62,539 nt of DNA from a virus (lineage: Duplodnaviria > Heunggongvirae > Uroviricota > Caudoviricetes). This document shows, in pieces, positions 4,865-62,539 of this stretch. The first letter of the stretch is position 1. Each line of letters begins with the position of its first letter. The notes below the pieces were generated by a model that did no database searches, had not been told where the DNA came from, and saw only the letters and a list, made by a program, of their open reading frames with translations. Location of the stretch: IMG/VR virus record IMGVR_UViG_3300032167_000057, positions 68,886 through 131,424 of that record. One strand, written 5' to 3'. The position numbers and the translations under genes were made by a program.

Positions 4865-4889
4865 AAAAAAGGGCTAAACGCCCTTTTTT
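4865..4889. terminator. intrinsic terminator, potentially bidirectional
   Basis: A6-GGGC-taaac-GCCC-T6. Confidence 0.7.
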
Positions 4890-4905
4890 CCTGAATATGT
4901 ACTAA

Positions 4906-5736: not shown

Positions 5737-6108
5737 AGTAATTACCTCATTCTTTCCGCCCTGATAGGGCTATGCTTGTTAGTAGTAAAGTCACACGACA
5801 GTGTGTCATGTGACTAGCACTACACGCAAGCGTGCGTGTGTGTGAGTCTATAACAACCTGATGAAAAAATCAGATACAACTTGATATCAACTAAAAAGTA
5901 ACGCCGACTATTCAAACCATGTTCGGGCTGAATGTCTGACGTGGTATGCGGTAGCACTACATCACGAGAAAAGCGAAAGAAAGTAAAACTTTCTAGTAAA
6001 GGGAAACCCTGAGGCTTGTCGGGTGTGTGTGTACGGTTGTCAATGTACTAATGAAAAATAACTAAAACCTAAACGGTCACAGATACGATATGGTCTGTGC
6101 CTGTGCTT

Positions 6109-6137
6109 AGTATATCAACTACTAAACTATAACGCAA
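6109..6137 (-). promoter_or_regulatory. sigmaA-type promoter for leftward genes
   Basis: Minus strand TTGCGT-17 nt-TATACT. Confidence 0.6.
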
Positions 6138-6923
6138 CAACTATTTTAAAATATTTTCAAAAAAATAATCAAAAAAGCCCGCAAACCCGCATAAATACGG
6201 GGTTTTTCGGACTTCAAAAAATTGAAAAAAAATCAAAAAACCTTCAAAAAAACCTTGTTATTCCCCTATAATTACATAATTACGGGGGTATTAATTATTA
6301 AAAATTTCCAATCAAATTCAATATTTATGTTGGGGGATAAATCTACACACGCACCAAAAATTTCCGTTCCTCTCACCACTTCCCCTAACATTCTCTCCTC
6401 TTCCTATCCATCCCAAAAATCCATCGACCTTAAAAATCACCACTCTCTCCTCTCCTTAATAATCCTTCCACTCTCCCACCATTCCCCAAAACATCTTCCA
6501 CCTAATTTTTTTCACCCACTCTTTATCCCCATTACCCCTGTTATTCAGTCAAATCCTCCAAAACGCTCACAAAAACATTGAACATTTCATTTCAAAATCT
6601 GTATAATGTATTAGGATGATAAAAATAGGGTAAAAATATATACCCCATCACAAATAAAAAATTACATCAAAATCGTCCAAATCCTTATAAATACTGGCTT
6701 TCAAGCCTGTCTAAAATATTTTCTTATCTTAAATCGCGTTGTACGAGGTAAAAATCGAATTAGGAATATTTAATGAGGAATTTATCAACAAACGGTTTAA
6801 AATCGTTTTTGACCCTCATTTTCTCGTCTAGAGTCCCAAAAACTCCCCCTAAAAATAATTTGTATCCTCATATAATATTTAAATAGGAAAACCAGAAAGA
6901 AAAATTTACAGAAAGGAGGTTAC

Positions 6924-8189: not shown

Positions 8190-8564
8190 AAGTTATGATT
8201 TACGTATAGAACCATAAAAAAATAATAAAAACGATTAGAGGTAGAAAATATATAAAAGACCTACCCAACTCTTATTTCGAGATGTGGGTTAGTAGCTCGC
8301 CCTAATCCGAAAAGCTCCGCGTTTCGTATAAGGGCTCGCAGTGGTTTCCTTTTCGGTTCTTAGCAAATTGTTCGCTTCGCTCCAATTTGTAAGAGCCCTC
8401 AAAGATAAACAAAATAAAATTTATTTGTAAAAATATTTTTTATAACTACTTGATTAAGTCATTACAGTTAAGTCACCAGACTTAACCTGTAGCTCTGCTA
8501 CGACTACGCTTCACTAAAATTTAAAGATATTTAATATCTAAAAAACCAAAACAGAAAAAAAGGA

Positions 8565-10499
8565 GTGATATATATCGCTAAACAACAGATTTGCCATAAG
8601 TACATTTACAAGCTGCACAGCGAAAAACTCAGAAACAGTAATTGGAACTTATGGTTACCACTTGAAGAAGCTATGGCTAATGGTACAGATATTGTAGCGT
8701 TGAGTGATAGTCAAGTTCTTCGATTTATTGATGAAATTAATAATAAAAATACTGACCTTATTGCCAAAGGATTAAAATATAAAATAAAAGAAACAAAATT
8801 AAAACCGTATAGTATTGCTAATAAAAATAAAATCCAGCGGTTATATACGGAATTATATGAAACACAGTTTCAACCCGATTACATGTGTGTGATTATGGAT
8901 AATAAAGCAGATTATTTACGTGCTAATAAAGGATTTAGTGTAAATGGTATTCGGTATAAACGCTTTTTAGGAACTAACGGGGGTATTAAAAATTCCACTA
9001 TAGTTTATGTTAGCGAACGGGTATACCCTATTTTAAAAGAACGCTTAGATTGCGGACGTAATAAAGAAATACCTTTAGTACCTGCTAAATTAGAAGCATA
9101 TCAAGCATTAATTTGTTCGGGTTCAATTCCTGTTAGTATGCCAAAAGGTATTATTGTAGTACCTGATTGTGAGACCGTCTTTCATGAAGATATTATTACT
9201 ATAGATGATTCCAATAGTGATGAACCTATTCTTGAAGAAGTTAAGGACGCAGAAATACATTTAACAGACAGTGACGGATATGGATTAATGTTACCTAGTA
9301 TTTCAAAACAGTGGAATAAAGAGTTGGGCATGAGCCGTGATGGAGAATATTTATCAGGAGTAAATACTAGAGGTCTTCCATGGACTAAAGGAATGTTATT
9401 TACTTTTGACTTTATTCAGTTTGCGGAAGAAGTTGCTGGTACTTATGAAATCACAGATATTTGGGGACATAAAAGAGATATTCGTGATGCAGAAGTTATT
9501 TTAACTGGTAGTATGCTAAAATTATGGGATTCCTACTCTTCTTTTGAAGATTATTGGGAGAATGTAATTAAGTATAATTATCAATTTGCGATTGCTAAGA
9601 CTGCTCCACATGAGTTAGAAGGTGAACGACAAACCAATTATCAGTTCTTACAGAGCTATGATTTAACAGATGAACAGATTGCGGAATTTATAGCTCCTAC
9701 TGTAGACTGGATAAATGATGTTCTTGGTATGGATTATAGAAGAAGTTTATTATACTTACTTGGAGGTTATTTAACTGACCGTAAAGCATTATCGCACGAA
9801 CCTGATTTTGTAAAAGCCTTGATGATTGAACCGCAAATGATTAATGACCCATTTGTTCGCAATCGGATTCGTATGATGATAAATACTACAATTAATAATG
9901 CTAAAAAAGGTGTTATTAATGTAAAAGGTAATTTTGCCATTATTGGCGGAGACCCCTACGCTTTACTTCAGTCCGTATTTGGTCTTGAAATTACTGGTTT
10001 ATTACAAGCTGGTGAATGCTATCATAAATATTGGAGTGACCAAGGAGTTCCTGAAGTTGTTTGCTTTAGAGCTCCTATGACCAGTCATAATAATATTCGT
10101 AAATTAAAATGTGTAACAAATGATGAAATTAATAAATGGTTTCGATATATCAGTACCTGTATGTTGCTTAATGCGTGGGATACTACATGTGATGCTTTGA
10201 ATGGTGCTGATAAGGATGGAGACCTATTCTTTACAACTAATAATCAAATCTTAATGGACAACACTCGTCCAACTTTATCAATTCATTGTGTGCAACGTAA
10301 AGCACCAAAAATAATTCCAACAGAACAAGATATTGTACAAGCTAATTTATTAAGTTTCGGAGATGAAATCGGAGCAACTACTAACACCATTACTTCTCAA
10401 ATTGATATTCAAGCTAATTTTAAAAAAGATTCAGAAGAATATAAAGTATTAGATTACAGAATCAAGTGTGGACAATTATACCAACAGAATGCTATCGAT
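8565..10499 (+). CDS. yonO: YonO-like single-subunit (RdRP-like fold) DNA-dependent RNA polymerase, exon 1
   Basis: Catalytic NGADKDGD (DxDGD) motif, FRAP motif; SPbeta-like synteny (RNAP-HU-phosphoesterase-terminase-portal); ends QQNAID at predicted splice site. Confidence 0.9.
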
Positions 10500-11621
10500 T
10501 AATTTTGAGTCGCCTTACACAGCGATGTGTATTGAATAACAAGGTGAACCTATAAATATAGGGTGTACATTACACGTTTAGGAGTTGTAGGAAATGACGA
10601 CTAGGTAATGTGCTAACTGGGAAAATCTAAATATATAACAATACTATGCGAAATATTTTACAAGACAGGATGTGATTATATAAGTTTATATAAAACATAT
10701 GGAATTTATGGAATAAGAAATAAAACCAATAATAAAGTCTACGTTGGTAAGACAGAAATGAATTTTGGTGATAGAAAAGATTGTCACTTTACAAGTCTTC
10801 GTGGTGGATATCATATTAATCCACACCTACAAAAATCTTTCAATAAATATGGAGAAGATAACTTTGAATTTATTGTATTGTACGAATGTAAAGATGGCGA
10901 AGATACTCATATAGTTAATAAGTTGGAACAAAAATATATTAAATTATATAAAGATAAAGGTCTTGCCTATAATATTGGAGATGGTGGCGATGGTGGTCAT
11001 AATCTAGGAAAACATTTATCAGAAGAAACCAAAAGAAAAATTGGTAATAAAAATAGAATTAATATGACAGGCCGTAAAGCCACTAATGAAACTAAAAAAA
11101 GGATGTCTGAATCACAGAAGAAACGATTTAAAAATCTTTCCGATGAAGAACGAAAAGAATACGGCAGACAAATCTCTGAATATGCTTCTGGATATCAATG
11201 GTCAGCAGAAGCAAAGAAAAATTTTTCAAAAATCCAACAAACTAAACCTAATGGTGCAAAATATGACGTAGAAACAGTAAAAGAAATAAGACGCTTACAT
11301 AAAGAAGAAAACTTAACATACACAGAAATTTCAAATCTACTAGATATACCAAGACCTGCTGTGTATTTAATTGCTACATATAGAAGATGGAAACATATCG
11401 CATAGTCCATCAAGACTGTTATATACAAGATAATCCAGTGCCAAGCTAAAATGGTGACATTTTAGAAGGTCTAACGAGCAAGATATACCGTCTCATTGAG
11501 ATGATGAAATCTGTATGATTAAGGTGAAATTCCTTAATCAGAAGTGCCTTGCCCTCATTATTATGAGGTGATGATGTGCTCTACTCCCCTAATAAATATC
11601 GGGAAACCGAGGGTATAAAGG
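10500..11621 (+). mobile_element. group I intron in RNAP gene, with GIY-YIG homing endonuclease
   Basis: Exon ends in U; P1 CGAU/GUCG (10509-12) with U.G pair; P7 GAGCA(11476)/TGCTC(11577); ends in G; joined frame reads QQNAID|KAKGIICKPMPAEW. Confidence 0.9.
10680..11405 (+). CDS. GIY-YIG homing endonuclease with NUMOD3-like repeats (track start 10758 misses the GIY-YIG motif)
   Basis: In-frame upstream extension gives YGIYGIRNKTNNKVYVGKT; HLSEETKRKI and ATNETKKRMS repeats; likely ATA start after AGGATGTGA. Confidence 0.88.
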   Translation: MSLYKTYGIYGIRNKTNNKVYVGKTEMNFGDRKDCHFTSLRGGYHINPHLQKSFNKYGEDNFEFIVLYECKDGEDTHIVNKLEQKYIKLYKDKGLAYNIGDGGDGGHNLGKHLSEETKRKIGNKNRINMTGRKATNETKKRMSESQKKRFKNLSDEERKEYGRQISEYASGYQWSAEAKKNFSKIQQTKPNGAKYDVETVKEIRRLHKEENLTYTEISNLLDIPRPAVYLIATYRRWKHIA

Positions 11622-12479
11622 AAAGCCAAAGGTATTATTTGTAAACCAATGCCCGCCGAATGGAAACGTATCAAGCCAAATGAAATTTTGGAGACCGATG
11701 AAGCGTGCACTATATTACAAAAACAATTTAACCAGCGTATAGTTGCTGATAAATATCCATATTTCTTTATCTATAATTATCTTTCATTAAAACAAGAATT
11801 TGATAGATATTTTAAAACAATGAATTATATTTGTTATGATGAATTATCTGTTTTCTTATCTGATTTAATTTCTAAATATAAAAATCATGAATTTTTATCC
11901 CCAGTAGAACAAAATTTTCTAAATAATTATTTTAAAAATTGCCCAGTTTCTTATGCCCCTTCAATAATGAATAGACTTTGTTGGCAATTAGAACAAAAAT
12001 TAGGAAAAACCAAAAAAGATAATAAAGAGTTTGATTATGCATTATTATTGTCTGAAAATAAAATAAATAAACGTATTAAAAAAGAAGTCGAAGCAATTTA
12101 CGACGAATATAAGCGACGTTCTGTTGAGTGTCAAGTTCGTTTACAAAGACATCAAATTACTAAAGACGAGTATACTGCTTTTTATACTTTAACTCTGGAT
12201 TGGTTTAAACAACAAATTTTTAGTATTTGTAATAATGCCGAAACAGTAACGGATGCGTTAATTGATTTGTGTTACACCCATTCAAATTCAAAACAGTTTG
12301 TTTGGGATGTATGTGGTGAACAAATCATTCGTAATTTATTAAATAGACATAATAATTTAATTTCTTATCCAGTACAAGACCGTGAAGGTGAAATTGAATT
12401 TTGGGGAGAAAAATTTAGTATGCGTACTATTAATTATGATAATTATATGGATATGTCAGAGGAGGAAAAAAATGGGTAA
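11622..12479 (+). CDS. yonO: YonO-like RNA polymerase, exon 2 (spliced product about 930 aa)
   Basis: Frame open from 11622 and in phase with exon 1; no SD before track ATG 11649. Confidence 0.88.
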   Translation, partial: KAKGIICKPMPAEWKRIKPNEILETDEACTILQKQFNQRIVADKYPYFFIYNYLSLKQEFDRYFKTMNYICYDELSVFLSDLISKYKNHEFLSPVEQNFLNNYFKNCPVSYAPSIMNRLCWQLEQKLGKTKKDNKEFDYALLLSENKINKRIKKEVEAIYDEYKRRSVECQVRLQRHQITKDEYTAFYTLTLDWFKQQIFSICNNAETVTDALIDLCYTHSNSKQFVWDVCGEQIIRNLLNRHNNLISYPVQDREGEIEFWGEKFSMRTINYDNYMDMSEEEKNG

Positions 12480-13239
12480 ATTTATATTAAATGAAAAAAA
12501 ATACGTAGAAGAAGAACTTCTAACGGGTAAAAATATCCACGCAAAAATGTCTCGTGCTATGTTATTACTGTCCAAGTATTATATATATGAATTACATAAA
12601 ACTGATGATGAAGTTCGACAGTTAATAAAGGAATTATATAATAATTATGATTCACCTATCACTTCGGAATATTTATTAAAACAATTAGATTATGCGATTT
12701 CTTATGCACATGAGAGACCTTTAGTGTGTATTGATTATATTAATATTACAAAAGAAGAACAGAAAATAATTAAAAAAATTGAAAATGAGGAATTACAAAA
12801 ATTATTATTTACAATGCTTTGTTTATGTAAATTCCATGATTTCCGCAATTCTGAAAATAATCATTGGGTAAATTACTTTTCAGATGGTATTGCGCCCTTA
12901 TTTGCATTAGCTAATGTGAGAGGCTCTTCTGAAGCCAAATTAGAATTGTTACGTGAGTTGCGAATCGCGGGATTTATTACTCGCACAAATAGTTATGCCC
13001 GTTATAATTGGCAAATTAATATTGTAGATGAAAATCCAGATAGTGAAGTGTTTTATCAAGTTGTCAACATGGATAATCTTGGCTATCAATGGCTGGTTGC
13101 CACTAAACAGGGTAAATTTTGTGCGGATTGTGGTCAATACATTCCTAAATATAAACCACGAAAAGGACATATGAAAACTAGAAATGAGGCACAAATTCGT
13201 TATAAATATTGTAAAAAATGTCGTGAAAAACGCAAATAA
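12472..13239 (+). CDS. hypothetical protein with C-terminal zinc finger, coupled to RNAP gene
   Basis: SD GGAGGA before ATG 12472 overlapping RNAP stop; CADCG...CKKC. Confidence 0.8.
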   Translation: MGKFILNEKKYVEEELLTGKNIHAKMSRAMLLLSKYYIYELHKTDDEVRQLIKELYNNYDSPITSEYLLKQLDYAISYAHERPLVCIDYINITKEEQKIIKKIENEELQKLLFTMLCLCKFHDFRNSENNHWVNYFSDGIAPLFALANVRGSSEAKLELLRELRIAGFITRTNSYARYNWQINIVDENPDSEVFYQVVNMDNLGYQWLVATKQGKFCADCGQYIPKYKPRKGHMKTRNEAQIRYKYCKKCREKRK

Positions 13240-13474
13240 TGGGTAGTACCACTACCCTTATTTGTAGCGTAAATATGTGTGATTTTTATAGTATAAAATT
13301 TTTTTCATACTTTGAAAGAGAGAGAATAAAGTATCATTATTTTTCTCTCAATAATACGCTCCGCGAGTAAGGCGCACGCTGATGTCTATATTAAATTTAT
13401 TATAATAGTGCGTACACAGGAGCGATTATAATAGGAAATAATAAAAACGGATATAAAGGATTAAAAGGAACAAC

Positions 13475-30112: not shown

Positions 30113-31066
30113 ATGGCTACAAGAAGTAAACGAATTACTATGTATGACGCGGAAAAATTAAAGTTAATTAATCCTGAGTCATTAAAAATGATTCATAAAT
30201 ATAAACAGGATATGAGTATCAGAGAACTCTCTCCTAAAACTGTATACAATTATTTAACTGATTTAAACCAATGGTTAATTTATGTATATGATAATCAGTT
30301 TAATCAGAGCGTATTAGAACTGAACGAGGATGACATTACAGAGTTTATCTATTGGTGCAAAATCCAAGGAAATAACACTGAACGTATTAAACGTAGAATG
30401 TCTTCTATTTCAGCGTTTTATATATATTTACATAAAAAACGCTTGATAAAGGAAAACCCGATGACTTTTATTGACCGCCCTAAAAAGGGAAGTCCAGTTG
30501 TCACACAAACGTTTTTAACACTAGAACAAGTTGAATTAATGAAACAAAAATTACAGGAGCATGGAGATTTGCAGTTGCAAACCTATGCTCTTTTTTCATT
30601 ATCTACTATGGCTCGTGTAAATGCTGTTGCTAATTTAAAATGGGAACAAGTAGATTTAGAACGTCGTACTTGTACTAATGTATTAGAAAAAGAAGGTAAA
30701 TTGGTTGATTTATTCTTTTCTGAAGAAGTGCGTGATTTATTAATTGCAATTAAGGAAAAACGTGCTAATGAAGGAATTGATGACCACGGATGGGTATTTA
30801 CTACTCCACAAGCAACTGCTACTACTCCTATTCAAAATAGTACATTGAACGAATGGTGTAAAAAGATTGGAGCAATGATTAATGTACCAACTTTACACTG
30901 TCACGATTTTAGGCATTCTGGTGCGACTTTGTTAAAGAATTTGGGTATGCCATTAGAAGACGTATCTGCTTTATTAAATCATAGTGGTACTGATGTCACT
31001 AGAAAATTTTATATCAAAGAAGATACGAGTCGTTTATCTGCCGCAAAAGACCGATTTAAAATTTAA
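30113..31066 (+). CDS. tyrosine recombinase/integrase within tail module
   Basis: ARVNAV (R), EKEGK (K), HDFRH, LNH, FY catalytic residues; N-terminal SAM-like domain. Confidence 0.92.
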   Translation: MATRSKRITMYDAEKLKLINPESLKMIHKYKQDMSIRELSPKTVYNYLTDLNQWLIYVYDNQFNQSVLELNEDDITEFIYWCKIQGNNTERIKRRMSSISAFYIYLHKKRLIKENPMTFIDRPKKGSPVVTQTFLTLEQVELMKQKLQEHGDLQLQTYALFSLSTMARVNAVANLKWEQVDLERRTCTNVLEKEGKLVDLFFSEEVRDLLIAIKEKRANEGIDDHGWVFTTPQATATTPIQNSTLNEWCKKIGAMINVPTLHCHDFRHSGATLLKNLGMPLEDVSALLNHSGTDVTRKFYIKEDTSRLSAAKDRFKI

Positions 31067-41600: not shown

Positions 41601-43057
41601 AATTAGCTAACATGGCTGGTTCTGTTGATAAATTAGGCAGTTCCTCTTCTACTGCTTCATCTGGTATTAAATCTGCCGCAGGCGCTACGCAAGAATTAAA
41701 AGACAGTGCTCAAGGCATTTCAGATGAAATGTCCAATACTGTAACTGCTATTGAAGGTTTAAATTCAGTAAGTCTAAAAGGTTTGCAATTAACTTTTACT
41801 AATTTGATTAATACAATCCAATCAGTTTCAGAAGCCATAGGCGCGTTATCTACTGGTGCTACTGAAAGTGGAGTTGGTGGATTGGTCGGCGCTATTTCTG
41901 CATTAAATGCTGTTAATTTAGGTGGGGATGGAGAAGGTATTATTGATAAATTCAATAAACTGAAAGAGGCAGTATCTCAGGTTAGTGCGGCTATTACAGG
42001 CGGTGCTGGTGCAGCTGATACTGGTATAGATTTAACCGATAGAGGTTTTCCATCTGCTACTGGTCAGTCTACTACATCTGGTTCTGATGGTAGTGCTGGA
42101 TTAATTGGTGCTATTGAAGAGCAAGGTCAAATTGCCGAAACAGTTTTATCAGAGGAAATTCCTAGATTCAATGGTGAAGAAGAATCATTATTAGGTGCGG
42201 TAACAGATGTTACTACCGCTATTGCTGGTTCTGGAGACTCAGAAGAAGGTTCTGGCGAAGAAATAGATGCTACTAATCTTATGGGTGCAATTGAGGCACA
42301 ATATGATAAAGCCTTAGAAGTTCTACCAGATGAGAAATCCAAATTTGAAGAACTGCTAGAAGTAATTAAATCATGTGTTACTGAGTTAAATAATATGGTA
42401 ACTGCAATGCAGAATATGTCAGAAATGGAGTTTAATTTTGGTGGTGGCTCTACTGGCGGTGGATATAAAGGTACTGTTGGTAATGCTTTTGCTAAAGGTA
42501 CAATGAATATCAGAAGTTTACCTATTACTGGATATAAAGGTTTGCCACATGATGAGAAAAATGCGATGCGTTCTGAGTATGGTCAACCAGAATTGACAGT
42601 ATATCCAGACGGTACAACTGAACTCACAAGTAAACCTGTAATGTCAGACTTACCGAAAGGTACTGTAATTTTCAATGAAGAACAAACAAAGCGCATTATG
42701 CATAACCAAGGTACTGTTCTTGGTAAAGCTCATGCGGAAGGTACACTTCCTGCTGGTCTTATCCCGCTTGAAGCTGTTGACCCAGCAAAATATAAGATGC
42801 TGTCTGGTTCTTCTTTGGTTAAATTAACTGGTGTTGCTTTAGAAAAAGCTTTTGATAAACAAAATTCAGTATTAACTGAAACGGTTAATCAGGCATTGAA
42901 TTTACGTACAAATACTCCTGCTAAAGCACCAATTCATATGGGTGACATACAGTTTATTTGTAACGGAATTACTGCTGACCAAGTTGAAAAACAAATTAGC
43001 GGACATTTTGAAGGGCTGTTTACAGACGCTTATCAAAAATCAATGACCCGTCAATAA
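38681..43057 (+). CDS. tape measure protein, exon 3 (spliced product about 2480 aa)
   Basis: 1458-aa coiled-coil ORF without a good SD; C-terminal AFAKGT and GQPELT motifs. Confidence 0.8.
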   Translation: MLRIINGLKDSGLSGNIVKLGQEFQKSGKSAEYLADVTGLTVEQVTKLTKLKPNLVSFGKTLGTIAVAYVAMWTASKVWDAVNTTVDEAQEKIDNVNSKISTLNKEIQKLESIGYRNEAQNNRLNALQRELELQESLLAIEQKRYYQELTGNQFTDKFDSDNLYTKYYQEAPYLTDGFAEQNEVGMMKQRYSVNEHKIAEYDEKIVSTANDNKKAKLIEKRNKLLEKQVDLAGQLAEKEVEYLDYYTQAQEAVDSGLLYGSDLEDAKELASLWKAAYEDISSISTEIQKANDTFDYSAQIAGILGKVDYKDLKDPLIELAKNGDLSVNLLETEYTALTEALEAAGIEASELYYYLLNLADPQMAQRTKDIAALNTRVGIDSNIDSAGEAQAHSLLYNAGAYTDEGLTAWATIQTEIDTSNWTVEDIAAAIQEKLDGQVIEPEINVTPTITSSVQEIAKQLEPQMSALEEVYNSIFNGEGGFNADIIDHSMMANLEASFNQLEEDLGVTFDSQALEDFFRVLGDGVYTADEAQNAFNDLATAWFYSTDVLDHLSKETAGAITQQLELMGVTNAAEVVQTQLNNITAEKKYAAQVGKELAEATYSEAYAFISDEIALGNADKSLYTYYLTKLAVNGATVNTIDDCRNVLALANAADISGEALDQLASLMASYDKAMAQGNYTGATVIANEINKMKAKVDAEIANFKPTEINWSPVVDSAGKAGKDAGEELKDQLEQELNDLDSVISSVTNIIGDRIDDLQNQMDAAIDALEAERDAAIEALEDEKKALEDAVKAKQDQIDAIREAREERSAELDLQRKEYELERLQNQRTLLIYSDSKGFHYENDSKEVRDAKEAVDEAKEEIEILKIEKEISALEDSIDNIDDKIEEVNDHYDKLIEQTEQYWQSLIDSLEAYKSRWEELAELKEQAEFQRQLEELGLSSVDILNMSEEAFQSFKTQYSEALNAYLAASGATEEELANMAGSVDKLGSSSSTASSGIKSAAGATQELKDSAQGISDEMSNTVTAIEGLNSVSLKGLQLTFTNLINTIQSVSEAIGALSTGATESGVGGLVGAISALNAVNLGGDGEGIIDKFNKLKEAVSQVSAAITGGAGAADTGIDLTDRGFPSATGQSTTSGSDGSAGLIGAIEEQGQIAETVLSEEIPRFNGEEESLLGAVTDVTTAIAGSGDSEEGSGEEIDATNLMGAIEAQYDKALEVLPDEKSKFEELLEVIKSCVTELNNMVTAMQNMSEMEFNFGGGSTGGGYKGTVGNAFAKGTMNIRSLPITGYKGLPHDEKNAMRSEYGQPELTVYPDGTTELTSKPVMSDLPKGTVIFNEEQTKRIMHNQGTVLGKAHAEGTLPAGLIPLEAVDPAKYKMLSGSSLVKLTGVALEKAFDKQNSVLTETVNQALNLRTNTPAKAPIHMGDIQFICNGITADQVEKQISGHFEGLFTDAYQKSMTRQ

Positions 43058-49509: not shown

Positions 49510-50067
49510 ATGTATACTATATTAATTAACAAAGATAACTCGCTTACCACCTCGGTTAGAGAACGTATAACGCAGGGAAGCAATTTAGTTGATTCCTTGC
49601 GTTTTTTAGTTGAACCAGTATATGCAAATATTGAAATGAAAGATTTCGTTGTAGAGATGGAATATGTAATACCTAATCCTGAATTGGTACAACAAAAAAC
49701 AGTGCAATTAGAACTGGTTACAGATGAAAACGGTGAGCCCGTGTTATATAAAAATAGATTGGATTATAGATTACCTGTAACAAACGAATTTACTACTTAC
49801 GCAGGACGAATTAAAATCAATCTAATATTTACTAAAACCGAATTTGAAGAAGAAACTGAGAACGTTTATATTAGAAAAACTACTAATACTTATTTAGAAA
49901 TTACACCTGTAGACCACGATATGCCTGTGGAAATGGCTTATAAAGCAGATAGTATTGTTATTAATGAAGATAATACTATCCAATTAACAGCCAATGATGT
50001 TCCCATTGGAGATAAAATTGCTACTACTTCTATCGTGGACACTGGACTACATATTGTAGAAGTGTAG
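49510..50067 (+). CDS. BppU-like baseplate upper protein, N-terminal-type domain
   Basis: ITQGSNLVDSLRF...FTTYAGRIKINL pattern. Confidence 0.5.
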   Translation: MYTILINKDNSLTTSVRERITQGSNLVDSLRFLVEPVYANIEMKDFVVEMEYVIPNPELVQQKTVQLELVTDENGEPVLYKNRLDYRLPVTNEFTTYAGRIKINLIFTKTEFEEETENVYIRKTTNTYLEITPVDHDMPVEMAYKADSIVINEDNTIQLTANDVPIGDKIATTSIVDTGLHIVEV

Positions 50068-50077
50068 GAGGTGTAAT

Positions 50078-50542
50078 ATGAGTGAAGTAAAAACTATGTT
50101 GTCAGTATTGGTAACGGATAATGCCAAACTGTATGACATTCCTATATCTAATAATTCTCAGATGATTTTTGTAAGAGATTTACGCACTATAGTATTAGAT
50201 TATCATGGTACGAGGCATTTTTTTAATCAGATAATTACAATTAATACAGAAGCGGAAAAAGGTGAAATAGCTCCTATTAATGGATGTTATTATTTTGTAA
50301 AAGATTCTGTAGTGTTATATACCTACCAAGATGATAATTGGATACCATTAACACAAAATTCTGCTGGTACAATTTATATCGGAATTGCGAAACCTAGTGT
50401 TGGTGTAAATGGAATTTTATATGTAGATACAATGAATCAAGATATTTCGGTTTGGGATTTGAACAGACAAGAATATACTATTGTGGGCAATGTATCACAA
50501 AGTATAACCGAAGCTGAATTATTACAACTTTTTAACAACTAA
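50078..50542 (+). CDS. tail-tip hypothetical protein
   Basis: ORF track; SD AGGAGGTG. Confidence 0.7.
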   Translation: MSEVKTMLSVLVTDNAKLYDIPISNNSQMIFVRDLRTIVLDYHGTRHFFNQIITINTEAEKGEIAPINGCYYFVKDSVVLYTYQDDNWIPLTQNSAGTIYIGIAKPSVGVNGILYVDTMNQDISVWDLNRQEYTIVGNVSQSITEAELLQLFNN

Positions 50543-50562
50543 GGAAAGGACATATATATATT

Positions 50563-51450
50563 ATGGCAAATCAAGCATTTTTAGACATAACTGGCGTTGG
50601 CGTATTAAAAACTGAATTAGAAAAGGTAATGGACAATAAAGACGCTGCGATTCTTGCTCAGGCTGACCCAGCAGGTACTGCTGCCACCAAGGTACAGGAA
50701 TTAGCAGATGGTGCGGTAAAGACAAATACAGAATCTATTGCTAAATTAAATGGTGATGCTTCTACTGAAGGTTCTGTGGCAAAAGCGGTTAAAGATTCTG
50801 CTGATGCTCTTGATGCAAAAATTGGTACTCTTGCCGATTTGGATACAACTGCTAAAACAGACCTTGTAAATGCGATTAATGAAGTTAGAGCCGCAGTGGA
50901 TGCTGGCGGTACTGGAAGTCAGGTTACAATTGATACTTCTGCAACAACAGCAGGTTATTTAAAGTCTTACACAATTAAACAGGGCGATAATACTGTAGGT
51001 GTTATTGATATCCCGAAAGATTTAGTTGTAACTGCTGGTGAAGTTGTTGTAGACCCAGATGGACAGGCTGCTGGTACATATGTAAAATTAACAATTGCTA
51101 ATCAGGAAACACCTATTTATATTAACGTTGCTGATTTAGTAGATGCTTATACAGCACAGGCTAGCGCTACGCAGGTTCAGTTAGCAATTTCTGCTACTAA
51201 CGAAATCTCTGCTACTATCGTTGCTGGTTCTATTACTGCAACAGAATTAGCAGCTGATGCGGTTACTACTGTGAAGATTGCAGATGCTAATGTTACTGCT
51301 GCTAAACTTGCCGATGATGCAAAAGCTTTATTTGATGCGACTGGTTCTTCTGCACAAGCATTAACAGATGCTAAAGCATATACAGATGAACAGATGGCTA
51401 CCATTTCCGCAATTGAAACAAGTGCTATCGAAGCATTGTTTACACCATAA
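50563..51450 (+). CDS. Ala/Thr-rich fibre-like structural protein
   Basis: LAADAVTTVKIADANVTAAKLADD repeats; DLTTTAKTDLVNAINE motif. Confidence 0.65.
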   Translation: MANQAFLDITGVGVLKTELEKVMDNKDAAILAQADPAGTAATKVQELADGAVKTNTESIAKLNGDASTEGSVAKAVKDSADALDAKIGTLADLDTTAKTDLVNAINEVRAAVDAGGTGSQVTIDTSATTAGYLKSYTIKQGDNTVGVIDIPKDLVVTAGEVVVDPDGQAAGTYVKLTIANQETPIYINVADLVDAYTAQASATQVQLAISATNEISATIVAGSITATELAADAVTTVKIADANVTAAKLADDAKALFDATGSSAQALTDAKAYTDEQMATISAIETSAIEALFTP

Positions 51451-51515
51451 TTAAAACATAAAACTAAAGGCTGTGGCTTCGTGTCACAGCCTTATTTATA
51501 TTGGAGGACTTAATC

Positions 51516-51668
51516 ATGAACGAACAAGAATTTTTAGATTATGTTGGCCTTCAGGTTGTTGTAAACAAGTTAATGGAAAAGATAAACCAAATGGGTAATA
51601 GTGCATTTAATCTAGTATTAAATGAAGATGGAAGCCTGTCTCTAGTTTACAATGATGCAAATTCGTAG
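51516..51668 (+). CDS. small protein, 50 aa
   Basis: SD GGAGG; MNEQEFLDYVGL resembles N-terminus of 50563 (QAFLDITGV). Confidence 0.6.
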   Translation: MNEQEFLDYVGLQVVVNKLMEKINQMGNSAFNLVLNEDGSLSLVYNDANS

Positions 51669-51682
51669 AGAGGAGGATTATT

Positions 51683-52333
51683 GTGAGTCAAACCATTGAT
51701 TTACTTAAAAATAGTTCTTTTGAACAAGGTATGGCCGACTTGGTTACTGCTATACAAACACAATCAAACCACTCTCACGCTAATCTCGCTATCCTGAATG
51801 CTACTACTGCTCCATATACAACAGAAGAAAAGGCAGAAGTAAGCACTATTAGAAACAAGCCAAATACTTCAGAATTGTCAGAAGTGGCTTTTTCTGGTGA
51901 TTATCATGATTTATTAAATATTCCTGAAGAATTCACTGTCCCTATGGCAAGCACTACTACGTTGGGTGGTGTTAAAGTAGGTTCTGGTTTATCTATAGAT
52001 GGTAATGGTATTTTATCTGCTTCTGGTGCTGTTTCTTCTGTTAATGGTAAAACAGGTGCGGTTACCCTATCTGCTGACGATGTAAATGCTTATTCAAAAA
52101 CTGAAGTTGATGAAGCATTAGACCAATTTTATGCCGACCCATATATTGCCACAAGTATCGAAGGAGAAACTTTATCAATCAGAGCACAAGCAAGTGAAAG
52201 CGAAGTTAGCACTGTGATTGATTCAATCTATGCGAGATTAAATGCCGTAGAAGGTTCTGTTGTTGGAATTATTTATGACACTGAAGAACCTCCAGCTACT
52301 ACTGCTGTAGGTGTTACTTGGATAGATGGATAG
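51683..52333 (+). CDS. fibre-like protein
   Basis: ASTTTLGGVKVGSGLSIDGNG and VSSVNGKTGAVTL motifs typical of phage fibres. Confidence 0.7.
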   Translation: MSQTIDLLKNSSFEQGMADLVTAIQTQSNHSHANLAILNATTAPYTTEEKAEVSTIRNKPNTSELSEVAFSGDYHDLLNIPEEFTVPMASTTTLGGVKVGSGLSIDGNGILSASGAVSSVNGKTGAVTLSADDVNAYSKTEVDEALDQFYADPYIATSIEGETLSIRAQASESEVSTVIDSIYARLNAVEGSVVGIIYDTEEPPATTAVGVTWIDG

Positions 52334-52347
52334 AAAGGAAATTCATA

Positions 52348-52776
52348 ATGAGTGAAATTAATAAAATAAAATTAAATGAAGTGGAGTATGATATCGAAGA
52401 TATTACTGCACGCGAAAATATTGTTAATATGCAGGCTAACGTAGCGAATGATTTAGATGCTTGTTCGCTCGTGGCTGAAGAAGATAAAACATTAGCTGGT
52501 GCTTATGCAGTTCAACAGCTAAGCGACAGTTTAGATTGCGGTGTAGCAGAAGAAATAAGTTTAAACGCAAACAGTGGAACTGATTTTACTGTTAATTTTT
52601 CTTCCGCATTTAAAAATCCACCAGTTGTTTCGATGACTGCTATTGCTAATCATAATCAAGGCGTTCCCATATTGCGTGTTAAAGAAGTAACAACTAATGG
52701 TTTTACAGGTAGACTCTTTAACAATGATGGAACATCGCTAACTTGTAAAATCGGGTGGATTGCCGTATGTAAATAA
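52348..52776 (+). CDS. small fibre/receptor-binding-like protein with H-type-lectin-like C-terminus (cassette A)
   Basis: SD AGAAAGGA before ATG 52348; VNFSSAFKNPPVV...VTTNGF...IGWIA pattern. Confidence 0.7.
   Translation: MSEINKIKLNEVEYDIEDITARENIVNMQANVANDLDACSLVAEEDKTLAGAYAVQQLSDSLDCGVAEEISLNANSGTDFTVNFSSAFKNPPVVSMTAIANHNQGVPILRVKEVTTNGFTGRLFNNDGTSLTCKIGWIAVCK
52524..52534 (+). repeat. left inverted repeat CGACAGTTTAG (putative recombination site)
   Basis: Exact reverse complement at 53056..53066; lies within CTAA-GCGACAGT-TTAG dyad. Confidence 0.75.
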
Positions 52777-52780
52777 TTAA

Positions 52781-53066
52781 TTACCTTAATTGCATTTTAT
52801 AAACATTGCTACCAGATACAAAATTTTTCGTCGCAATTATATCGCCAGCCTTGCAATATATAGGTGGAAAAACAAAATTTATACTTGACGAACCACTACC
52901 ACCAATAGCAATAACATCAATTCCATTTATTGATACGGATTGATTATTGCTACTAGAATTAGCGGAAAAATACGCTCTAATAAAGCAATTTTCAGTAAGA
53001 GTAATAGTTGTATTTATTCCATCAATAATTTTTTCACGATTAGTAAAATCACACGCTAAACTGTCG
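52781..53066 (-). other. silent alternative C-terminal cassette B (91 aa after the repeat)
   Basis: Open frame reads DSL across the repeat in the same phase as cassette A; no SD; stop 4 nt from cassette A stop. Confidence 0.7.
53056..53066 (-). repeat. right inverted repeat CGACAGTTTAG
   Basis: Plus strand CTAAACTGTCG. Confidence 0.75.
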
Positions 53067-53146
53067 TTTTGTATGGGTATTATCAAAATACAATAGAATA
53101 AATATAACACATTGACAGTATCAAATAATATCTAAGGATAAATTAA

Positions 53147-53254
53147 ATGAAACGAATTACTTTGTATAGTTTGGCTATGATAGTATTAGTTTTAATATTA
53201 CTGCATACGGGTATTATAAATGAAAAACAATACGCTTATATACCTATTCCATAA
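53147..53254 (+). CDS. possible 35-aa hydrophobic peptide
   Basis: MKRITLYSLAMIVLVLILLHTGIINEKQYAYIPIP; SD-like TAAGGA. Confidence 0.4.
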   Translation: MKRITLYSLAMIVLVLILLHTGIINEKQYAYIPIP

Positions 53255-53376
53255 TAGCCAAATTATGTTTTGAAAAAATAAAATAAAAATTTTATATTTT
53301 TTTCTCACTTTTTGTACATAGTCCGCCTATTACTATATGTAACAAAAAATTGCAAAAGAAATAGGAGTACAAAAGT

Positions 53377-54384
53377 ATGAAAATGGACAAAGACCAATTA
53401 TTTAGAACTATTGTTAGGATGATGGCAGACCAAATGGATTTATCAACTACGCAAATGCATCAGGGATTAAACATCCTAACAAATATGTTCCAAAATATTG
53501 AATTAGTATGTGAGAAAGAATTACCTGCTACATTTGACAATACTAATGAAATGTTGATTAAAAACTACTTAGGTTGTAAACGTATGCAGGGTTGTTCGGA
53601 AAGCACATTAAAAGCTTATTATAATACTTTAATTACATTTGAACGCTATAGCAAAAAAGAATTTATTCATGTTGATACAAATCTTATTCGTAGATTTTTA
53701 ATGGATTATGAATCTAGAGTCCGCCGTACTACAGCAGATAATTGTAGACGTAATCTGAATACTTTCTTTCAATTTTTAGAAGATGAAAATTATATAGCGA
53801 AAAATCCATGTCGTAGAATACCAAAGATTAAAGATGATAGTCGAATCAAACGTTTTTATAATGACATGGAAATTGAAACAATGCGAGACTGTTGTAACAC
53901 TAAACGTGAATTAGCACTTGTAGATTTATTGATTTCTACAGGTCTTCGAGTAAGTGAAGTCCCAAAAATTCGTATAGATGAAATAGATTGGGAACAGAGA
54001 ACTATATTAATTCATGGGAAAGGCGGCAAAGACCGTATCGTACCATTCAGTACACGTTGTAAGAAACATTTATTAGAATATATAGAAGACCCTTCTCACG
54101 GTTCTAGTAATTATATCTTCTGCTCTTCTCACTCTCCTCATTATCAGCTTAGAAAAGAATCCGTACAACAGATAATTAAAACAGTAGGTAAACGTGCCAA
54201 TTTACCGCAAATTACTGTGCATTGTTTTAGACGTTGGTTTGCTACCGACCTTAATAAAAAAGGTGTAGAACCAGCCGTTATCCAGCAATTATTAGGACAC
54301 GAAAGCTTTGCGACTACGCAGAAGCATTATCTGGATAACCCTATTAGTAAAACAATTATGGCACATAATATATATGCAGCTTAA
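53377..54384 (+). CDS. XerD-like tyrosine recombinase, candidate invertase
   Basis: TGLRVSE, GKGGKDR, HCFRR, LLGH, KHY catalytic set. Confidence 0.92.
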   Translation: MKMDKDQLFRTIVRMMADQMDLSTTQMHQGLNILTNMFQNIELVCEKELPATFDNTNEMLIKNYLGCKRMQGCSESTLKAYYNTLITFERYSKKEFIHVDTNLIRRFLMDYESRVRRTTADNCRRNLNTFFQFLEDENYIAKNPCRRIPKIKDDSRIKRFYNDMEIETMRDCCNTKRELALVDLLISTGLRVSEVPKIRIDEIDWEQRTILIHGKGGKDRIVPFSTRCKKHLLEYIEDPSHGSSNYIFCSSHSPHYQLRKESVQQIIKTVGKRANLPQITVHCFRRWFATDLNKKGVEPAVIQQLLGHESFATTQKHYLDNPISKTIMAHNIYAA

Positions 54385-54390
54385 TAAACC

Positions 54391-54419
54391 TAAAAGAGAG
54401 TTTTCGGACTCTCTTTTTT
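54391..54419 (+). terminator. intrinsic terminator
   Basis: AAAGAGAGT-tttcgg-ACTCTCTTT-TTT. Confidence 0.7.
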
Positions 54420-54441
54420 AATGCAAAAAGGAGGTAGTGTT

Positions 54442-54675
54442 ATGGCTGTACTGTGTTCCAAATTTGGCGAAAAGATGAACGCTACAATTATGGAATTTGT
54501 ATTAGATACTGAAGACGAAATTCAGTATCTTCCAACTACTGAAAAGCAAGGAACTGGCGAATTTGAACAGTTTAATCATGTTGCTCCAATTGGTTCTATT
54601 GCCGTGGTTGGTAATGATGGGGGCGATTTATTGATATATGAACTATTCAGTTTTGGATGGAAAAAATTAAGTTAA
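54442..54675 (+). CDS. small hypothetical protein
   Basis: SD AAGGAGGT before ATG 54442. Confidence 0.7.
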   Translation: MAVLCSKFGEKMNATIMEFVLDTEDEIQYLPTTEKQGTGEFEQFNHVAPIGSIAVVGNDGGDLLIYELFSFGWKKLS

Positions 54676-54798
54676 TGAATACAAGAAAATAATAAAGAGG
54701 GATAATAAAGGACTTGCAAACCTTATGAATGGTAGTGCCTCGTATCTACCGTCCCTCTTTTGATTATATCTAAATACGAGGAAATACGAGGAATAATA

Positions 54799-56163
54799 AT
54801 GGGATTAATTACAAAAGAAGTTGAAGCTGGAATAAATAGTTCAAATTTGATTCATTATCAAAATTTAGGATATGAAATTCCAGAATTTACAAATAAAAGT
54901 GGTAAATCTTATGTAAAATGGGGCACAAAAATAAAAGTTAAAACAAGTGATTTATTACCTAATAGTGAAGTACGTGTAAATGTGCAATGCGATTGTTGTA
55001 ATAAAAATTATGATTTAACATATGGTGCTTATACTAGACAAAATCATGAAGGGAAAATATATTGTCAAAATTGTGCACCAAAAGTGTTAAATAGCGGTGA
55101 AAATCATTGGAACTGGAAATCGTATAAAACGCGAGAAGAAAGAATAAATGAAAGAAATTACCCAGAATACAAGGATTTTGTAAAATCTGTAATGGCTAGA
55201 GATAAATATATTTGTCAATGTTGTGGTAAATCGGCAACAGATGTACATCATTTATTTGGATATGCGGGATTTCCAGAATATAGAACAGACCAAACACAAG
55301 CATTGGCAATATGTTCAGCGTGTCATGATTCTTTTCATAAATGGCATCGTGAAAATTTTGGAGTTAAAAATAAAGGTTATTGCACTAGGTCTGATTATGA
55401 AAAATGGCTAGGGGATGCATTAGTTAAATTAAAGAAATACGACGGAGAACTTCTTGCCAGTTCTGAAATTATTTGTTTAGATACAAAAGAAATTAAAACT
55501 GCAAACGAATTTATGATTGATTTAGGTGATATATATCATGGTGGAATTTATGGTTGTTGTAATAAAAAATTGAGAAGTCATAAAGGAAAACATTTTTTAT
55601 ATTATTCTGAATATAAAGATATGACCGAAGAAGATTTGGAAAGATATTGGGATTGGTGTAATGAATTAAAAAAACAAAGAACAGTCATTTGTATTACCAC
55701 AAATCAAATATTTGATAGTGCGTTGAGCGCTGCTAAATACTTTAATCATGAAAATTGGCATGGACGCATACTTAAAGTTTGCAAAGGAAATAATTTTTCT
55801 GCTGGAAAATTACAAGATGGAACTCCTCTTCAATGGATGTTTTATAAAGACTATCTAAATAAAATAGAAAACGGAGAAGAAATTGTTTTCAATGCCAACA
55901 CACATAACAAAAAAGTTATTTGTATTACCACTGGTAAAATATTTAATGCAATTAAAGATGGTGCGTTATATTACAATATACAAAGCAAATCTACTATATC
56001 TGGTGTGTGTAATGGTAAACATAATTTTTGTGGAAAACTTGCTGATGGTACTCCCTTAGTGTGGATGTATTATGAAGATTTTTTAAAAATTCCTGTGGAA
56101 GAACAACAAAAAATATTGGGTAGAAACAAAGAGTCGTTAATTAATGACTCTTTTATTATGTGA
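54799..56163 (+). CDS. free-standing HNH endonuclease with NUMOD1-like repeats
   Basis: CQCCG..DVHH...ICSACHDSFH HNH core; three (V/I)ICL/ITT repeats; SD GAGG before ATG 54799. Confidence 0.85.
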   Translation: MGLITKEVEAGINSSNLIHYQNLGYEIPEFTNKSGKSYVKWGTKIKVKTSDLLPNSEVRVNVQCDCCNKNYDLTYGAYTRQNHEGKIYCQNCAPKVLNSGENHWNWKSYKTREERINERNYPEYKDFVKSVMARDKYICQCCGKSATDVHHLFGYAGFPEYRTDQTQALAICSACHDSFHKWHRENFGVKNKGYCTRSDYEKWLGDALVKLKKYDGELLASSEIICLDTKEIKTANEFMIDLGDIYHGGIYGCCNKKLRSHKGKHFLYYSEYKDMTEEDLERYWDWCNELKKQRTVICITTNQIFDSALSAAKYFNHENWHGRILKVCKGNNFSAGKLQDGTPLQWMFYKDYLNKIENGEEIVFNANTHNKKVICITTGKIFNAIKDGALYYNIQSKSTISGVCNGKHNFCGKLADGTPLVWMYYEDFLKIPVEEQQKILGRNKESLINDSFIM

Positions 56164-56206
56164 ATAAAATAATATATAAAATACTAAAGAAAGGCGGTGC
56201 ATCATC

Positions 56207-57181
56207 ATCGACATTATTACATATAGTTTACTTTTAAAAAAAATAAAAGGTGTTGCTACTGGTGTATCCACTGCTACATATGACGGTGATACTAGGTGTA
56301 TTGTATTCCGTTGTAATGACAATACCATTCTTAATATTCCAGTGCCCAATGGATTATCAAATGCAGAAATTGAAATGATTTCACATATGACTCTTGAAGA
56401 AAATGAAGATGGTTCATTTTATCTTGCTCTTGACGGAGAACGTATTGGTTCAAAAACTTGTGATTTTACTACTAGCGTTGAAGTCGGTGCTTTAAAGTCT
56501 GGCACAAAGTTCGAATCTGTAGAATGTGCAGATGTTTTAGAACAAATTTTAGTAGCTAAATTTCCACCATCTATTAAATTTACTTCTTCTCTCGCAGAAA
56601 GCGGTACATATGAAATCGGTGAAGTAAAAGATATAACATTGGATATTGAAGCAATTAAACAGAGTTACGATATTAAAAAAGTAGAAATCACTTCTACCCC
56701 ATCTATTGCCGAATTTACAACGAGTATTACTACTAGCCCTTGGGAACATAATGGTGAATTATCTATTAGCGATACACAGACTATAACTGTAAAAGCGACT
56801 GACGTTGAAGGTTTAATAAGTAGCAAATCTATCAAATGGAATTTTGTATACCCTATGTATGCAAGCTATGTTGATACTACTGTTACCACTTTAGAAGAAG
56901 CAGATATTATTAGTGGACAGAAAGTAATCAAACCTAAGAGTGCGGTTACTCTGGCTTATACATCCAACGACATTTTATTACGTCCAGTATTTGCTTATCC
57001 CAAAAACTATGGACAACTTAAAAGTGTTCTTGATGTGTTGAATCAGATTGAGTTAATTACTAATTATGATGTTCAAGAATTACAGATAGAATGTTTGGAC
57101 GGCAATATGGTCGATTACTATGTTTATGTAGCAAAAACCGAGGCCATATTAGATAACTTTGAAATTAAATTCAGTTGGTAG
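56207..57181 (+). CDS. tail-associated hypothetical protein (start extended from 56342)
   Basis: Frame open from ATC GAC ATT ATT (IDIITYSLLLKKIK) after SD AAAGGCGGTG. Confidence 0.65.
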   Translation: MDIITYSLLLKKIKGVATGVSTATYDGDTRCIVFRCNDNTILNIPVPNGLSNAEIEMISHMTLEENEDGSFYLALDGERIGSKTCDFTTSVEVGALKSGTKFESVECADVLEQILVAKFPPSIKFTSSLAESGTYEIGEVKDITLDIEAIKQSYDIKKVEITSTPSIAEFTTSITTSPWEHNGELSISDTQTITVKATDVEGLISSKSIKWNFVYPMYASYVDTTVTTLEEADIISGQKVIKPKSAVTLAYTSNDILLRPVFAYPKNYGQLKSVLDVLNQIELITNYDVQELQIECLDGNMVDYYVYVAKTEAILDNFEIKFSW

Positions 57182-61448: not shown

Positions 61449-62539
61449 ATGGAAAATAAACGTGGATTCATTATACGAAATGGCGTTAAAATCGGTGCGG
61501 TAGGCGATAAGAACTTTTCTACTTTGCACATTGGTTGTATCACACCGTATTTAGGTACAAAAGACAATGTTCCAAGAGGTTATTTACTCGCAGATGGTGC
61601 TAGTTATAAAACAACAGATTATCCTGAGTTATTTGATATTATCGGATATACCTATGGTGGTTCAGATGGCACATTCAATGTACCTAACCTTTGTGATGGA
61701 CGTTTCCTTGAAGGTTCTGATACAAGTGGTGAATATGTTGAAGCAGGATTGCCTAATATTACTGGTTACTTAGATATGGACGTAGGTGGTGCTCAAAACG
61801 TAGAAGGTGCTTTTTATAAAGGTACAACTTTTAATGCTCTTTATGGTGGAAACCCCACAACAGTTACTGATGTAGCATTTGACGCTTCCAAATCCAACCC
61901 TATTTACGGCAACGCTGATACAGTACAACCAAAATCATTGAGAGTTTTATATATCATCAAGGCTTTCCATACTAATGAGGGCGTGGATAGTGGTGTTAGT
62001 GATGATGTGGTTGATTATGTGGATAATAAGGTTGCCACAAAGAAAGATGCTGTAAAACTTCTTAACAATGCAACAGATTCAACAAAATGGCTTAAACTTA
62101 AATTAGGTAGTTCCGCAACGTGCCAACCTATTATAGTTTCAGACCAATATGGTGGAAAAGTTGAAATTACTGGTATGACTAATGATGGTACATATAAATC
62201 TGCGAAATTGGTTAGATATAGTTATGGTGATTGGACTACACACAGCGCAACAGATTATACTCTGTATAATGGAGTTGACCCTAATTATAAGATTCAGAAA
62301 TTTTATTATTATCCTACTGATGGTTATTACTATCTTGAAATTAGACAGTGGGCAACCATTAAAGTTGAGGGAAATAGCGCTGCGGAACTGGTTACAAGCT
62401 TACCTGCTGAAGAAAGTGAAATGACTTTAATACCTGAGAGTAATTGGGGCAGAATTGATGATACTTCAACAAAGACATCTTCAACTTGGAGCAGTAGCAA
62501 AATTGCTCAACAGATTAATAGTGCAACTACTATTAAGTA
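61449..62539 (+). CDS. tail fibre protein with tail-collar domain, partial (runs off window)
   Basis: Not in ORF track (no stop). IGCITPY..VPRGYLLADG..YPELFDIIGYTYGG..FNVPNL collar motif; GLPNITG. Confidence 0.85.
   Translation, partial: MENKRGFIIRNGVKIGAVGDKNFSTLHIGCITPYLGTKDNVPRGYLLADGASYKTTDYPELFDIIGYTYGGSDGTFNVPNLCDGRFLEGSDTSGEYVEAGLPNITGYLDMDVGGAQNVEGAFYKGTTFNALYGGNPTTVTDVAFDASKSNPIYGNADTVQPKSLRVLYIIKAFHTNEGVDSGVSDDVVDYVDNKVATKKDAVKLLNNATDSTKWLKLKLGSSATCQPIIVSDQYGGKVEITGMTNDGTYKSAKLVRYSYGDWTTHSATDYTLYNGVDPNYKIQKFYYYPTDGYYYLEIRQWATIKVEGNSAAELVTSLPAEESEMTLIPESNWGRIDDTSTKTSSTWSSSKIAQQINSATTIK

Follow-up and report, generated by a model that had tools for sequence, protein, structure and literature searches.

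A short locus in a large phage genome has the architecture of an inversion switch with which a tyrosine recombinase could exchange the C-terminal domain of a small fiber-tip protein. The stretch of DNA analyzed here (the window; 62,539 nucleotides) comprises bases 68886 to 131424 of virus record IMGVR_UViG_3300032167_000057, a complete record of 131,424 bp with a 50-bp terminal repeat. The phage is a large gut-type, SPbeta-like phage of Clostridia/Lachnospiraceae. The switch, at window positions 52524 to 53066, is referred to as locus d, and coordinates given as genome positions are those of the 131,424-bp record. We consider it likely that locus d, within a larger cassette system, undergoes programmed inversion as a Rin/shufflon-type switch with two cassettes. 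An earlier note on this DNA had proposed a tyrosine-recombinase inversion switch that swaps the C-terminal domain of the fiber tip. As architecture, the proposal was supported by module boundaries located at the arms of the repeat, a constant N-terminus, the synteny of the recombinase gene, and a rearranged relative.

Locus d is bounded by an exact 11-bp inverted repeat, CGACAGTTTAG and its reverse complement (Table 1), which a repeat finder extended to 14 nucleotides with one mismatch. The plus-strand gene at 52348 to 52776 encodes the 142-amino-acid protein P0001, which reads ..QQLS-D60-S61-L62-DCGV over the left arm. The minus strand, read from position 53065, begins D-S-L-ACDF.. and is open for 94 codons to a stop at 52781 to 52783 (P0004). 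As had been proposed, D-S-L is read in the same phase over both arms (C GAC AGT TTA G), the convergent stops are 4 nucleotides apart (52777 to 52780 lie between them), and inversion would yield a protein of 153 amino acids (62 plus 91) in place of the present 142. The lectin-like character of cassette A was borne out by a match to the Pfam family H_lectin (PF09458; 1.5e-6, 28.6 bits against a cutoff of 24) over P0001 residues 81 to 140, and an intact tyrosine recombinase gene does start 310 nucleotides past the right arm. The CTAA-8 nucleotides-TTAG dyad to which the earlier note drew attention fared less well. It is present in the left arm but missing from the right arm, and for that reason it was rejected as a general feature. 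In relatives the dyad generalizes to an imperfect T[ATG]A[AG]C-N4-GTTTA[GA].

These features suggest how the switch might work. The fixed 62-residue N-terminal part probably attaches the fiber-tip protein to the fiber or baseplate. D-S-L would join it to a C-terminal domain that presumably binds the receptor, and the codons for this tripeptide would form the crossover site. On the opposite strand, a second cassette, which appears to lack both promoter and start codon, has an inverted copy of the site at its head. A Xer-like recombinase without an arm-binding domain, most likely the product of the adjacent 335-amino-acid gene, would recombine the inverted sites and flip 521 bp, turning the H-type-lectin form of the protein into the cassette-B form. 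Eight further cassettes headed by CAGAAGTTTA(G), arranged as four inverted pairs at genome positions 0.5 to 11 kb, would serve a second fiber-tip protein, P0006.

By itself, the repeat does not reach significance. Within the same 3 kb there are several other inverted repeats of 13 to 14 nucleotides with 92 to 93% identity, and there are about 20 exact inverted 11-mers in a 28-kb stretch at the 32% G+C of the region. With inverted exact 11-mers this common, the repeat might be a coincidence and the 109-codon minus-strand open reading frame (ORF), which gene callers annotate as a 109-amino-acid protein, might be a small gene in its own right, the product of which would have a hydrophobic N-terminus encoded from the GTG at 53110. 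We regard this as extremely improbable because that GTG has no ribosome-binding site, homology breaks exactly at the arms in three relatives, the core of the repeat recurs in one of them (L019), and a paralogous domain is fused to an N-terminus at the same S-L position elsewhere in the same genome.

The comparison with relatives, not the repeat itself, is decisive in lifting locus d above chance. When window positions 50000 to 56500 were compared by blastn with related contigs L018 (97.7% identity), L019 (86%), and L014 (75%), homology ended exactly at 52534 in all three, and homology to L019 restarted at 53055. Because the homology breaks coincide with the arms, the stretch between them is a replaceable module, with the arms as its boundaries. 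The gene order in L019 is a 216-amino-acid gene, a fiber-tip gene (200 amino acids), an inverted cassette (F5/8 type C lectin), and a 335-amino-acid recombinase that is 95% identical to the product of the window's recombinase gene, P0002. The two cassettes of L019 are unrelated to those of the window, and they are surrounded by a 14-bp exact repeat, AAACGACAGTTTAG, with the same CGACAGTTTAG core. Both arms co-vary between phages, reading CCGAAGTTTA in L018, the contig of which stops exactly at the outer edge of its own right site, and TTAAACAACAGTTTAG in L014. The N-terminus MSEINKIKLNEVEYDIED...AVQQL was found, at 74 to 94% identity, in nine database proteins (P0022 to P0030), which carry unrelated C-termini (at least nine in all) of 21 to 167 residues after N-[R/D/N/E]-S-L.

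Table 1. Features of locus d and its surroundings (window coordinates)
Feature	Position	Strand	Remarks
216-amino-acid fiber-like protein, fiber gene cluster	51683..52333	+	PHROG tail-fiber matches; conserved synteny
Constant 5' segment of fiber-tip gene	52348..52534	+	62 codons ending D-S-L; AAGGA ribosome-binding site upstream
Left crossover site CGACAGTTTAG	52524..52534 (extended 52521-52534)	+	Homology to L018, L019, and L014 stops at 52534
Cassette A, in expressed position: H-type lectin C-terminal domain	52535..52776	+	PF09458; PHROG tail-fiber families
Cassette B, silent	52781..53055	-	91 codons plus stop; without ribosome-binding site or credible start
Right crossover site, reverse complement of left	53056..53066 (extended to 53069)	-	L019 homology restarts at 53055
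Hydrophobic ORF of 35 codons, lying between the switch and the gene for the recombinase	53148..53255	+	Gene-called in public contigs
Xer-like tyrosine recombinase P0002, 335 amino acids, candidate invertase	53377..54384	+	Pfam, NCBIfam, catalytic residues, orthologue positions

Cassette B has the properties of a spare gene end. There is no Shine-Dalgarno sequence before its only possible start, the GTG at 53110, unlike the case for P0001 and P0002. It is open over 94 codons in a region of 32% G+C, and its product has 62% amino acid identity to the C-terminus of P0006, with a ratio of nonsynonymous to synonymous substitution rates (dN/dS) of 0.31. Cassette B is intact and, as judged from this ratio, under purifying selection. 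Pfam gave nothing convincing for cassette B or the eight other cassettes, and a single-sequence AlphaFold2 model of P0006 had a mean predicted local distance difference test score (pLDDT) of 38. Look-alikes in the ESM Atlas were phage fiber families and a tumor necrosis factor-like jelly roll, which serve as leads only.

The cassette system extends well beyond locus d. P0006 is a second small fiber-tip protein (genome positions 4376 to 4876; 166 amino acids) with the N-terminus MAINETS... and, as its C-terminus, the paralogue of cassette B. After its gene comes a convergent ORF without a start, the reading of which opens with N-R-S-L, and an exact inverted repeat of 14 bp, TGAACAGAAGTTTA, is present here. 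The sequence CAGAAGTTTA, read R-S-L, occurs in nine copies genome-wide, compared with 0.56 expected, and eight of the copies are at the heads of cassettes. These eight are arranged as four inverted pairs (539+/1471-, 1522+/2516-, 4606+/5192-, and 10426+/11127-). The cassette that follows each copy is open in the R-S-L frame, and an N-terminal segment lies upstream only at 4606, in the gene for P0006. The eight cassettes (genome positions 539 to 11137; locus L015) lie outside the window among fiber, lysis (holin-like and endolysin), Ku, and integrase genes, and some of the scattered cassettes would require inversion of 2 to 6 kb that holds other genes in order to be used. The ninth copy (window positions 42511 to 42520; genome positions 111396 to 111405) lies in the tape-measure gene and also reads R-S-L. 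It was rejected as a member of the system and is probably coincidental because it has no partner and a single copy would be expected by chance.

The first 81 residues of P0006 are 95 to 96% identical in its relatives, which have other C-termini after R/Q/D/E-S-L, some of them resembling silent cassettes of the present genome. Similarly, the P0001 relatives P0029 and P0024 carry cassettes like the present genome's silent cassettes 2 and 3. As the relatives of both proteins carry C-termini that resemble silent cassettes, the two types of N-terminus have a common pool of cassettes across the family. Locus d is the second of two expression loci in a ten-site system that reaches past the window. 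In this respect the earlier proposal needs correction, because locus d is not a two-state switch that stands by itself.

Two further observations concern the scattered cassettes. One of them, of only 28 codons (RSLANGQVKFQVTDGELYYSVYTEESGV), is followed by a separate 162-amino-acid ORF in another frame (L015:1522-2100; also L014:6919-7551). This unit has the look of a two-gene cassette that has been conserved, not of a pseudogene with a frameshift, because a relative expresses the same arrangement (the 83-amino-acid P0024 plus a 122-amino-acid ORF). In an otherwise near-identical contig of 139,366 bp (JGI 3300029305), about 8 kb replaces the cassette pairs after the 467-amino-acid tail-collar fiber gene (window positions 61449 to 62539 onward). 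This stretch encodes an ADP-ribosylglycohydrolase, a 578-amino-acid large serine recombinase, a Band_7 protein, a dUTPase, and a vWA protein, and either the insertion of a mobile element or a different arrangement of the genome is the probable explanation.

A more distantly related prophage, which carries a fiber gene like that of P0006, showed evidence of recombination at sites of this kind. This prophage has ten CCAGAGTTTA sites, read Q-S-L, of alternating orientation. The contigs L016 and L017, which represent this prophage in different samples, were 98 to 100% identical and differently ordered, with every breakpoint at a CCAGAGTTTA site. The expressed fiber gene encodes 259 amino acids in one contig and 178 in the other, and the C-terminus of the 178-amino-acid protein is the silent 93-amino-acid cassette of the other contig, inverted. 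As read from the two assemblies, this is natural evidence of site-specific rearrangement at x-S-L sites, though not at locus d itself.

P0002, encoded beside locus d, has a match to Phage_integrase (PF00589; 7e-36), and R191, K215/K218, H282, R285, H308, and Y318 are invariant in the family alignment. Its NCBIfam scores were under the XerA/C/D cutoffs, and the closest solved structures were XerA and XerD. It has SAM-like and catalytic domains only, and no DNA-binding domain of the arm type. Altogether, the genome encodes four tyrosine recombinases (PF00589), and a serine recombinase (PF00239) is absent from the whole genome. The other three tyrosine recombinases (window positions 30113 to 31066, genome positions 50153 to 51190, and genome positions 12062 to 13459) are about 24 to 26% identical to P0002 or to each other. 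One recombinase, of 465 amino acids, adjoins the last cassette pair and resembles a 439-amino-acid integrase at the end of the distant prophage; it is most likely the lysogeny integrase, distinct from P0002.

Recombinase loci were also scanned, with one genome per species. Where the recombinase was 52 to 55% identical to P0002, the gene was flanked by 2 to 7 copies of inverted repeats of 14 to 50 bp at four of five loci, in Clostridium sp. and Lachnospiraceae (Lachnospiraceae bacterium 28-4 among them). Three of those four loci are beside recognizable fiber-tip genes. Two loci with 33%-identical recombinases had no such repeats. When the phage collection was searched with P0002, the only matches were at no more than 37% identity, to unannotated or integrase-labeled genes.

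Judged by its location and its orthologues, P0002 is most likely the invertase of locus d. It could be argued that the switch is real and that one of the three further tyrosine recombinases inverts it, with P0002 serving, for example, in dimer resolution, because the genome has four PF00589 genes and P0002 scores as Xer-like. Furthermore, the eight canonical sites are 10 to 24 kb from P0002, one pair of them adjoins the 465-amino-acid integrase, and the only recombinase visible near the sites of the distant relative is the 439-amino-acid integrase. However, orthologues of P0002 with 52 to 55% identity are embedded among fiber-shufflon repeats in four independent genomes, and the 95%-identical orthologue lies beside the switch in L019. 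The other three recombinases are paralogues with only about 24 to 26% identity, and the 465- and 439-amino-acid proteins sit at a prophage end, as ordinary integrases do. Inversion by another enzyme thus seems quite improbable.

In the prophage fiber shufflons of L020, L022, L023, and L024 (Clostridium sp. and Lachnospiraceae genomes), the recombinase gene lies within the invertible DNA. Their sites are quite different from those of the present phage, such as TAAACAGCAATTTAA, present seven times in Lachnospiraceae bacterium 28-4, and the 50- and 29-bp repeats in L022. These differences show that the site sequence evolves fast within the recombinase family.

The surroundings of the recombinase gene were also of note. 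Two independent public contigs (JGI 3300024303 and ENA ERZ27248351) end at window positions 53347 to 53369, 22 nucleotides apart, just upstream of the start codon of the recombinase gene, and no repeat or site accounts for these ends. Between the recombinase gene and the next fiber genes, a 467-amino-acid HNH-endonuclease-like ORF (window positions 54760 to 56163; DUF968 and PHROG HNH families) may be a mobile insertion, because it is absent at that position in L019, which has other genes there.

Several observations in addition to the ordinariness of the repeat weigh against the interpretation of locus d as a working switch. Locus d was flipped in none of about 20 public contigs with the flanking genes (JGI, ENA, and Logan assemblies), and these contigs match the arrangement of the window at every locus. 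The inversion isomers that mark Rin-type systems were thus seen in L016 and L017 only. Contigs of 131.5 and 139.4 kb cross all ten sites unbroken, and none of the ends of the present phage's public assemblies coincides with a site. In a search of 5.8 billion proteins, cassette B was found only as an unfused ORF, on 16 contigs. The locus d repeat has a length of only 11 bp, and its site differs from the canonical site at 3 of 11 positions (CGACAGTTTAG compared with CAGAAGTTTAG). Lastly, with three other tyrosine recombinases present, the case for P0002 as the enzyme is one of position and orthology.

The single orientation in the contigs implies that, in the populations sampled, switching is rare or conditional or the switch is frozen. 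A frozen switch would be a fossil, a module that was built and exchanged over evolutionary time in which locus d no longer inverts and cassette B is an unused remnant. The uniform orientation across several projects and the divergence of the locus d site core from the eight canonical sites are consistent with this explanation. So is the replacement of the whole module, including the site core, between relatives that are 97.7% identical, for which homologous recombination in the flanks could suffice. However, a remnant would not be expected to be intact and apparently under purifying selection, as cassette B is, nor would its arms be expected to be identical and to co-vary across four lineages, or its recombinase to be intact and 95% conserved in position. 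Furthermore, lytically grown lysates of phage Mu are almost all G(+), and a single orientation in assemblies is likewise expected of a slow switch under host selection. We therefore consider a frozen switch unlikely. For the programmed-inversion switch that we favor, the design is well supported, and activity in the present phage is unproven.

Alignment of all the sites gave T[ATG]A[AG]C-N4-GTTTA[GA]. All sites have a conserved arm on the cassette side. The arm on the outer side is well formed only where a real N-terminus adjoins it, and at silent cassettes it is degenerate. The 4 nucleotides in the center do not vary within any interacting set and differ from set to set: they are GACA in locus d and L019, AGAA in the eight canonical sites, CGAA in L018, AACA in L014, and CAGA in the distant prophage. 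This pattern is as expected if strand exchange needs central identity. Spacer-dependent insulation has precedent in heterospecific spacer variants of lox and FRT. It is therefore possible, although we hold it only tentatively and think it more doubtful than not, that one recombinase runs two insulated circuits, with locus d (GACA) recombining with itself and the eight others (AGAA) among themselves. An insulation rule of this kind predicts that the two arms should change their central tetranucleotide jointly, and this is what is seen in relatives. If this were true, there would be two independently varied fiber tips, with 2 times up to 8 combinations, and some shuffles would invert several kilobases, including lysis genes.

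The cultured-phage collection, searched at the levels of DNA and protein for the locus, for cassette B, and for the N-terminus of P0006, returned nothing useful, and no cultured relative with the fiber protein was found there. No usable relatives came from IMG/VR when it was scanned with P0002 and cassette B, or from JGI metagenome contigs when they were scanned with an 870-amino-acid fiber protein; near-identical records are probably outside the searched set.

The closest known counterpart is the Rin shufflon of Bifidobacterium breve and Bifidobacterium longum prophages, with its constant Rc, Rv cassettes, and 11-bp rix sites (Mavrich et al. 2018; PMC6109161). Rin, a XerD-like enzyme that lacks an arm domain, was, according to its description, the first tyrosine invertase of a phage (PMC6109161). 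A Rin-type shufflon has been reported in Eggerthella lenta prophages as well (PMC8778435), and tail fibers are a recognized target class of programmed inversions (PMC9881135). In common with locus d, the Rin shufflon has a constant N-terminal segment of a receptor-binding protein, promoter-less C-terminal cassettes, a short (11-bp) asymmetric site heading each cassette, an adjacent XerD-like recombinase without an arm-binding domain, and a separate lambda-type integrase elsewhere. Locus d has the features by which Rin-type systems are recognized from sequence, namely a constant N-terminus, an inverted start-less cassette, an in-frame short site that is rare elsewhere, and an adjacent Xer-like recombinase. 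There are also differences. The present system is in a 131-kb SPbeta-like phage of Clostridia/Lachnospiraceae, whereas Rin is in actinobacterial siphophages, and the site here is ..AGTTTAG rather than the TTCCCTAACCC of Rin. Locus d itself has only two cassettes, with the remainder spread over about 24 kb among fiber, lysis, and integration genes, and there are two constant N-termini.

Other systems share parts of this design. In the R64/IncI plasmid shufflon (Rci, sfx, and pilV), as described, a tyrosine recombinase likewise swaps the C-terminus of an adhesin by multiple inversions. One arm and the core of the R64 sfx sites are conserved, and the other arm is degenerate. The sites of the locus d system are similar, with a conserved cassette-side GTTTA[GA] and a degenerate outer arm at silent sites. 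However, the R64 target is a plasmid pilus adhesin rather than a phage fiber, the R64 sites are 19 bp, and the segments are contiguous. With Gin of Mu, Cin of P1, and Min of p15B, the likeness is that inversion swaps the C-terminal part of a tail fiber and hence host range; the 28-codon cassette plus ORF, conserved in L014, also recalls the Sv-U/Sv'-U' arrangement of Mu. Gin, Cin, and Min are serine invertases that work with an enhancer and Fis, in contrast to the present genome, which, as noted above, has no serine recombinase and hence no enzyme of the Gin/Cin/Min/Pin type. The earlier note's parallel with Gin and Cin, but with a tyrosine enzyme, holds in its logic; a tyrosine enzyme in this role is not new, because Rin was already a phage tyrosine invertase (PMC6109161). 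In the inversion of type I restriction-modification hsdS genes, as described, a Xer-like recombinase similarly adjoins in-frame short inverted repeats that exchange specificity domains (PMC7672463), whereas the target here is a virion protein and not a DNA-specificity subunit. Thus, the kind of switch is already known. What is modestly novel is that a single genome combines two N-termini with two classes of site.

Locus d provides a clear example of the switching of receptor-binding tips by a tyrosine recombinase, as predicted from its design, in a large SPbeta-like phage of gut Clostridia. It indicates that such systems can have two constant N-termini on one cassette pool, with cassettes distributed across tens of kilobases. 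In the site variants there is a natural opportunity to test whether the specificity of a simple Xer-like invertase depends on the spacer. For annotation, the small antisense ORFs in these fiber regions are to be regarded as spare gene ends, not genes, and therefore one assembled genome would under-report the possible host-attachment repertoire of such a phage.

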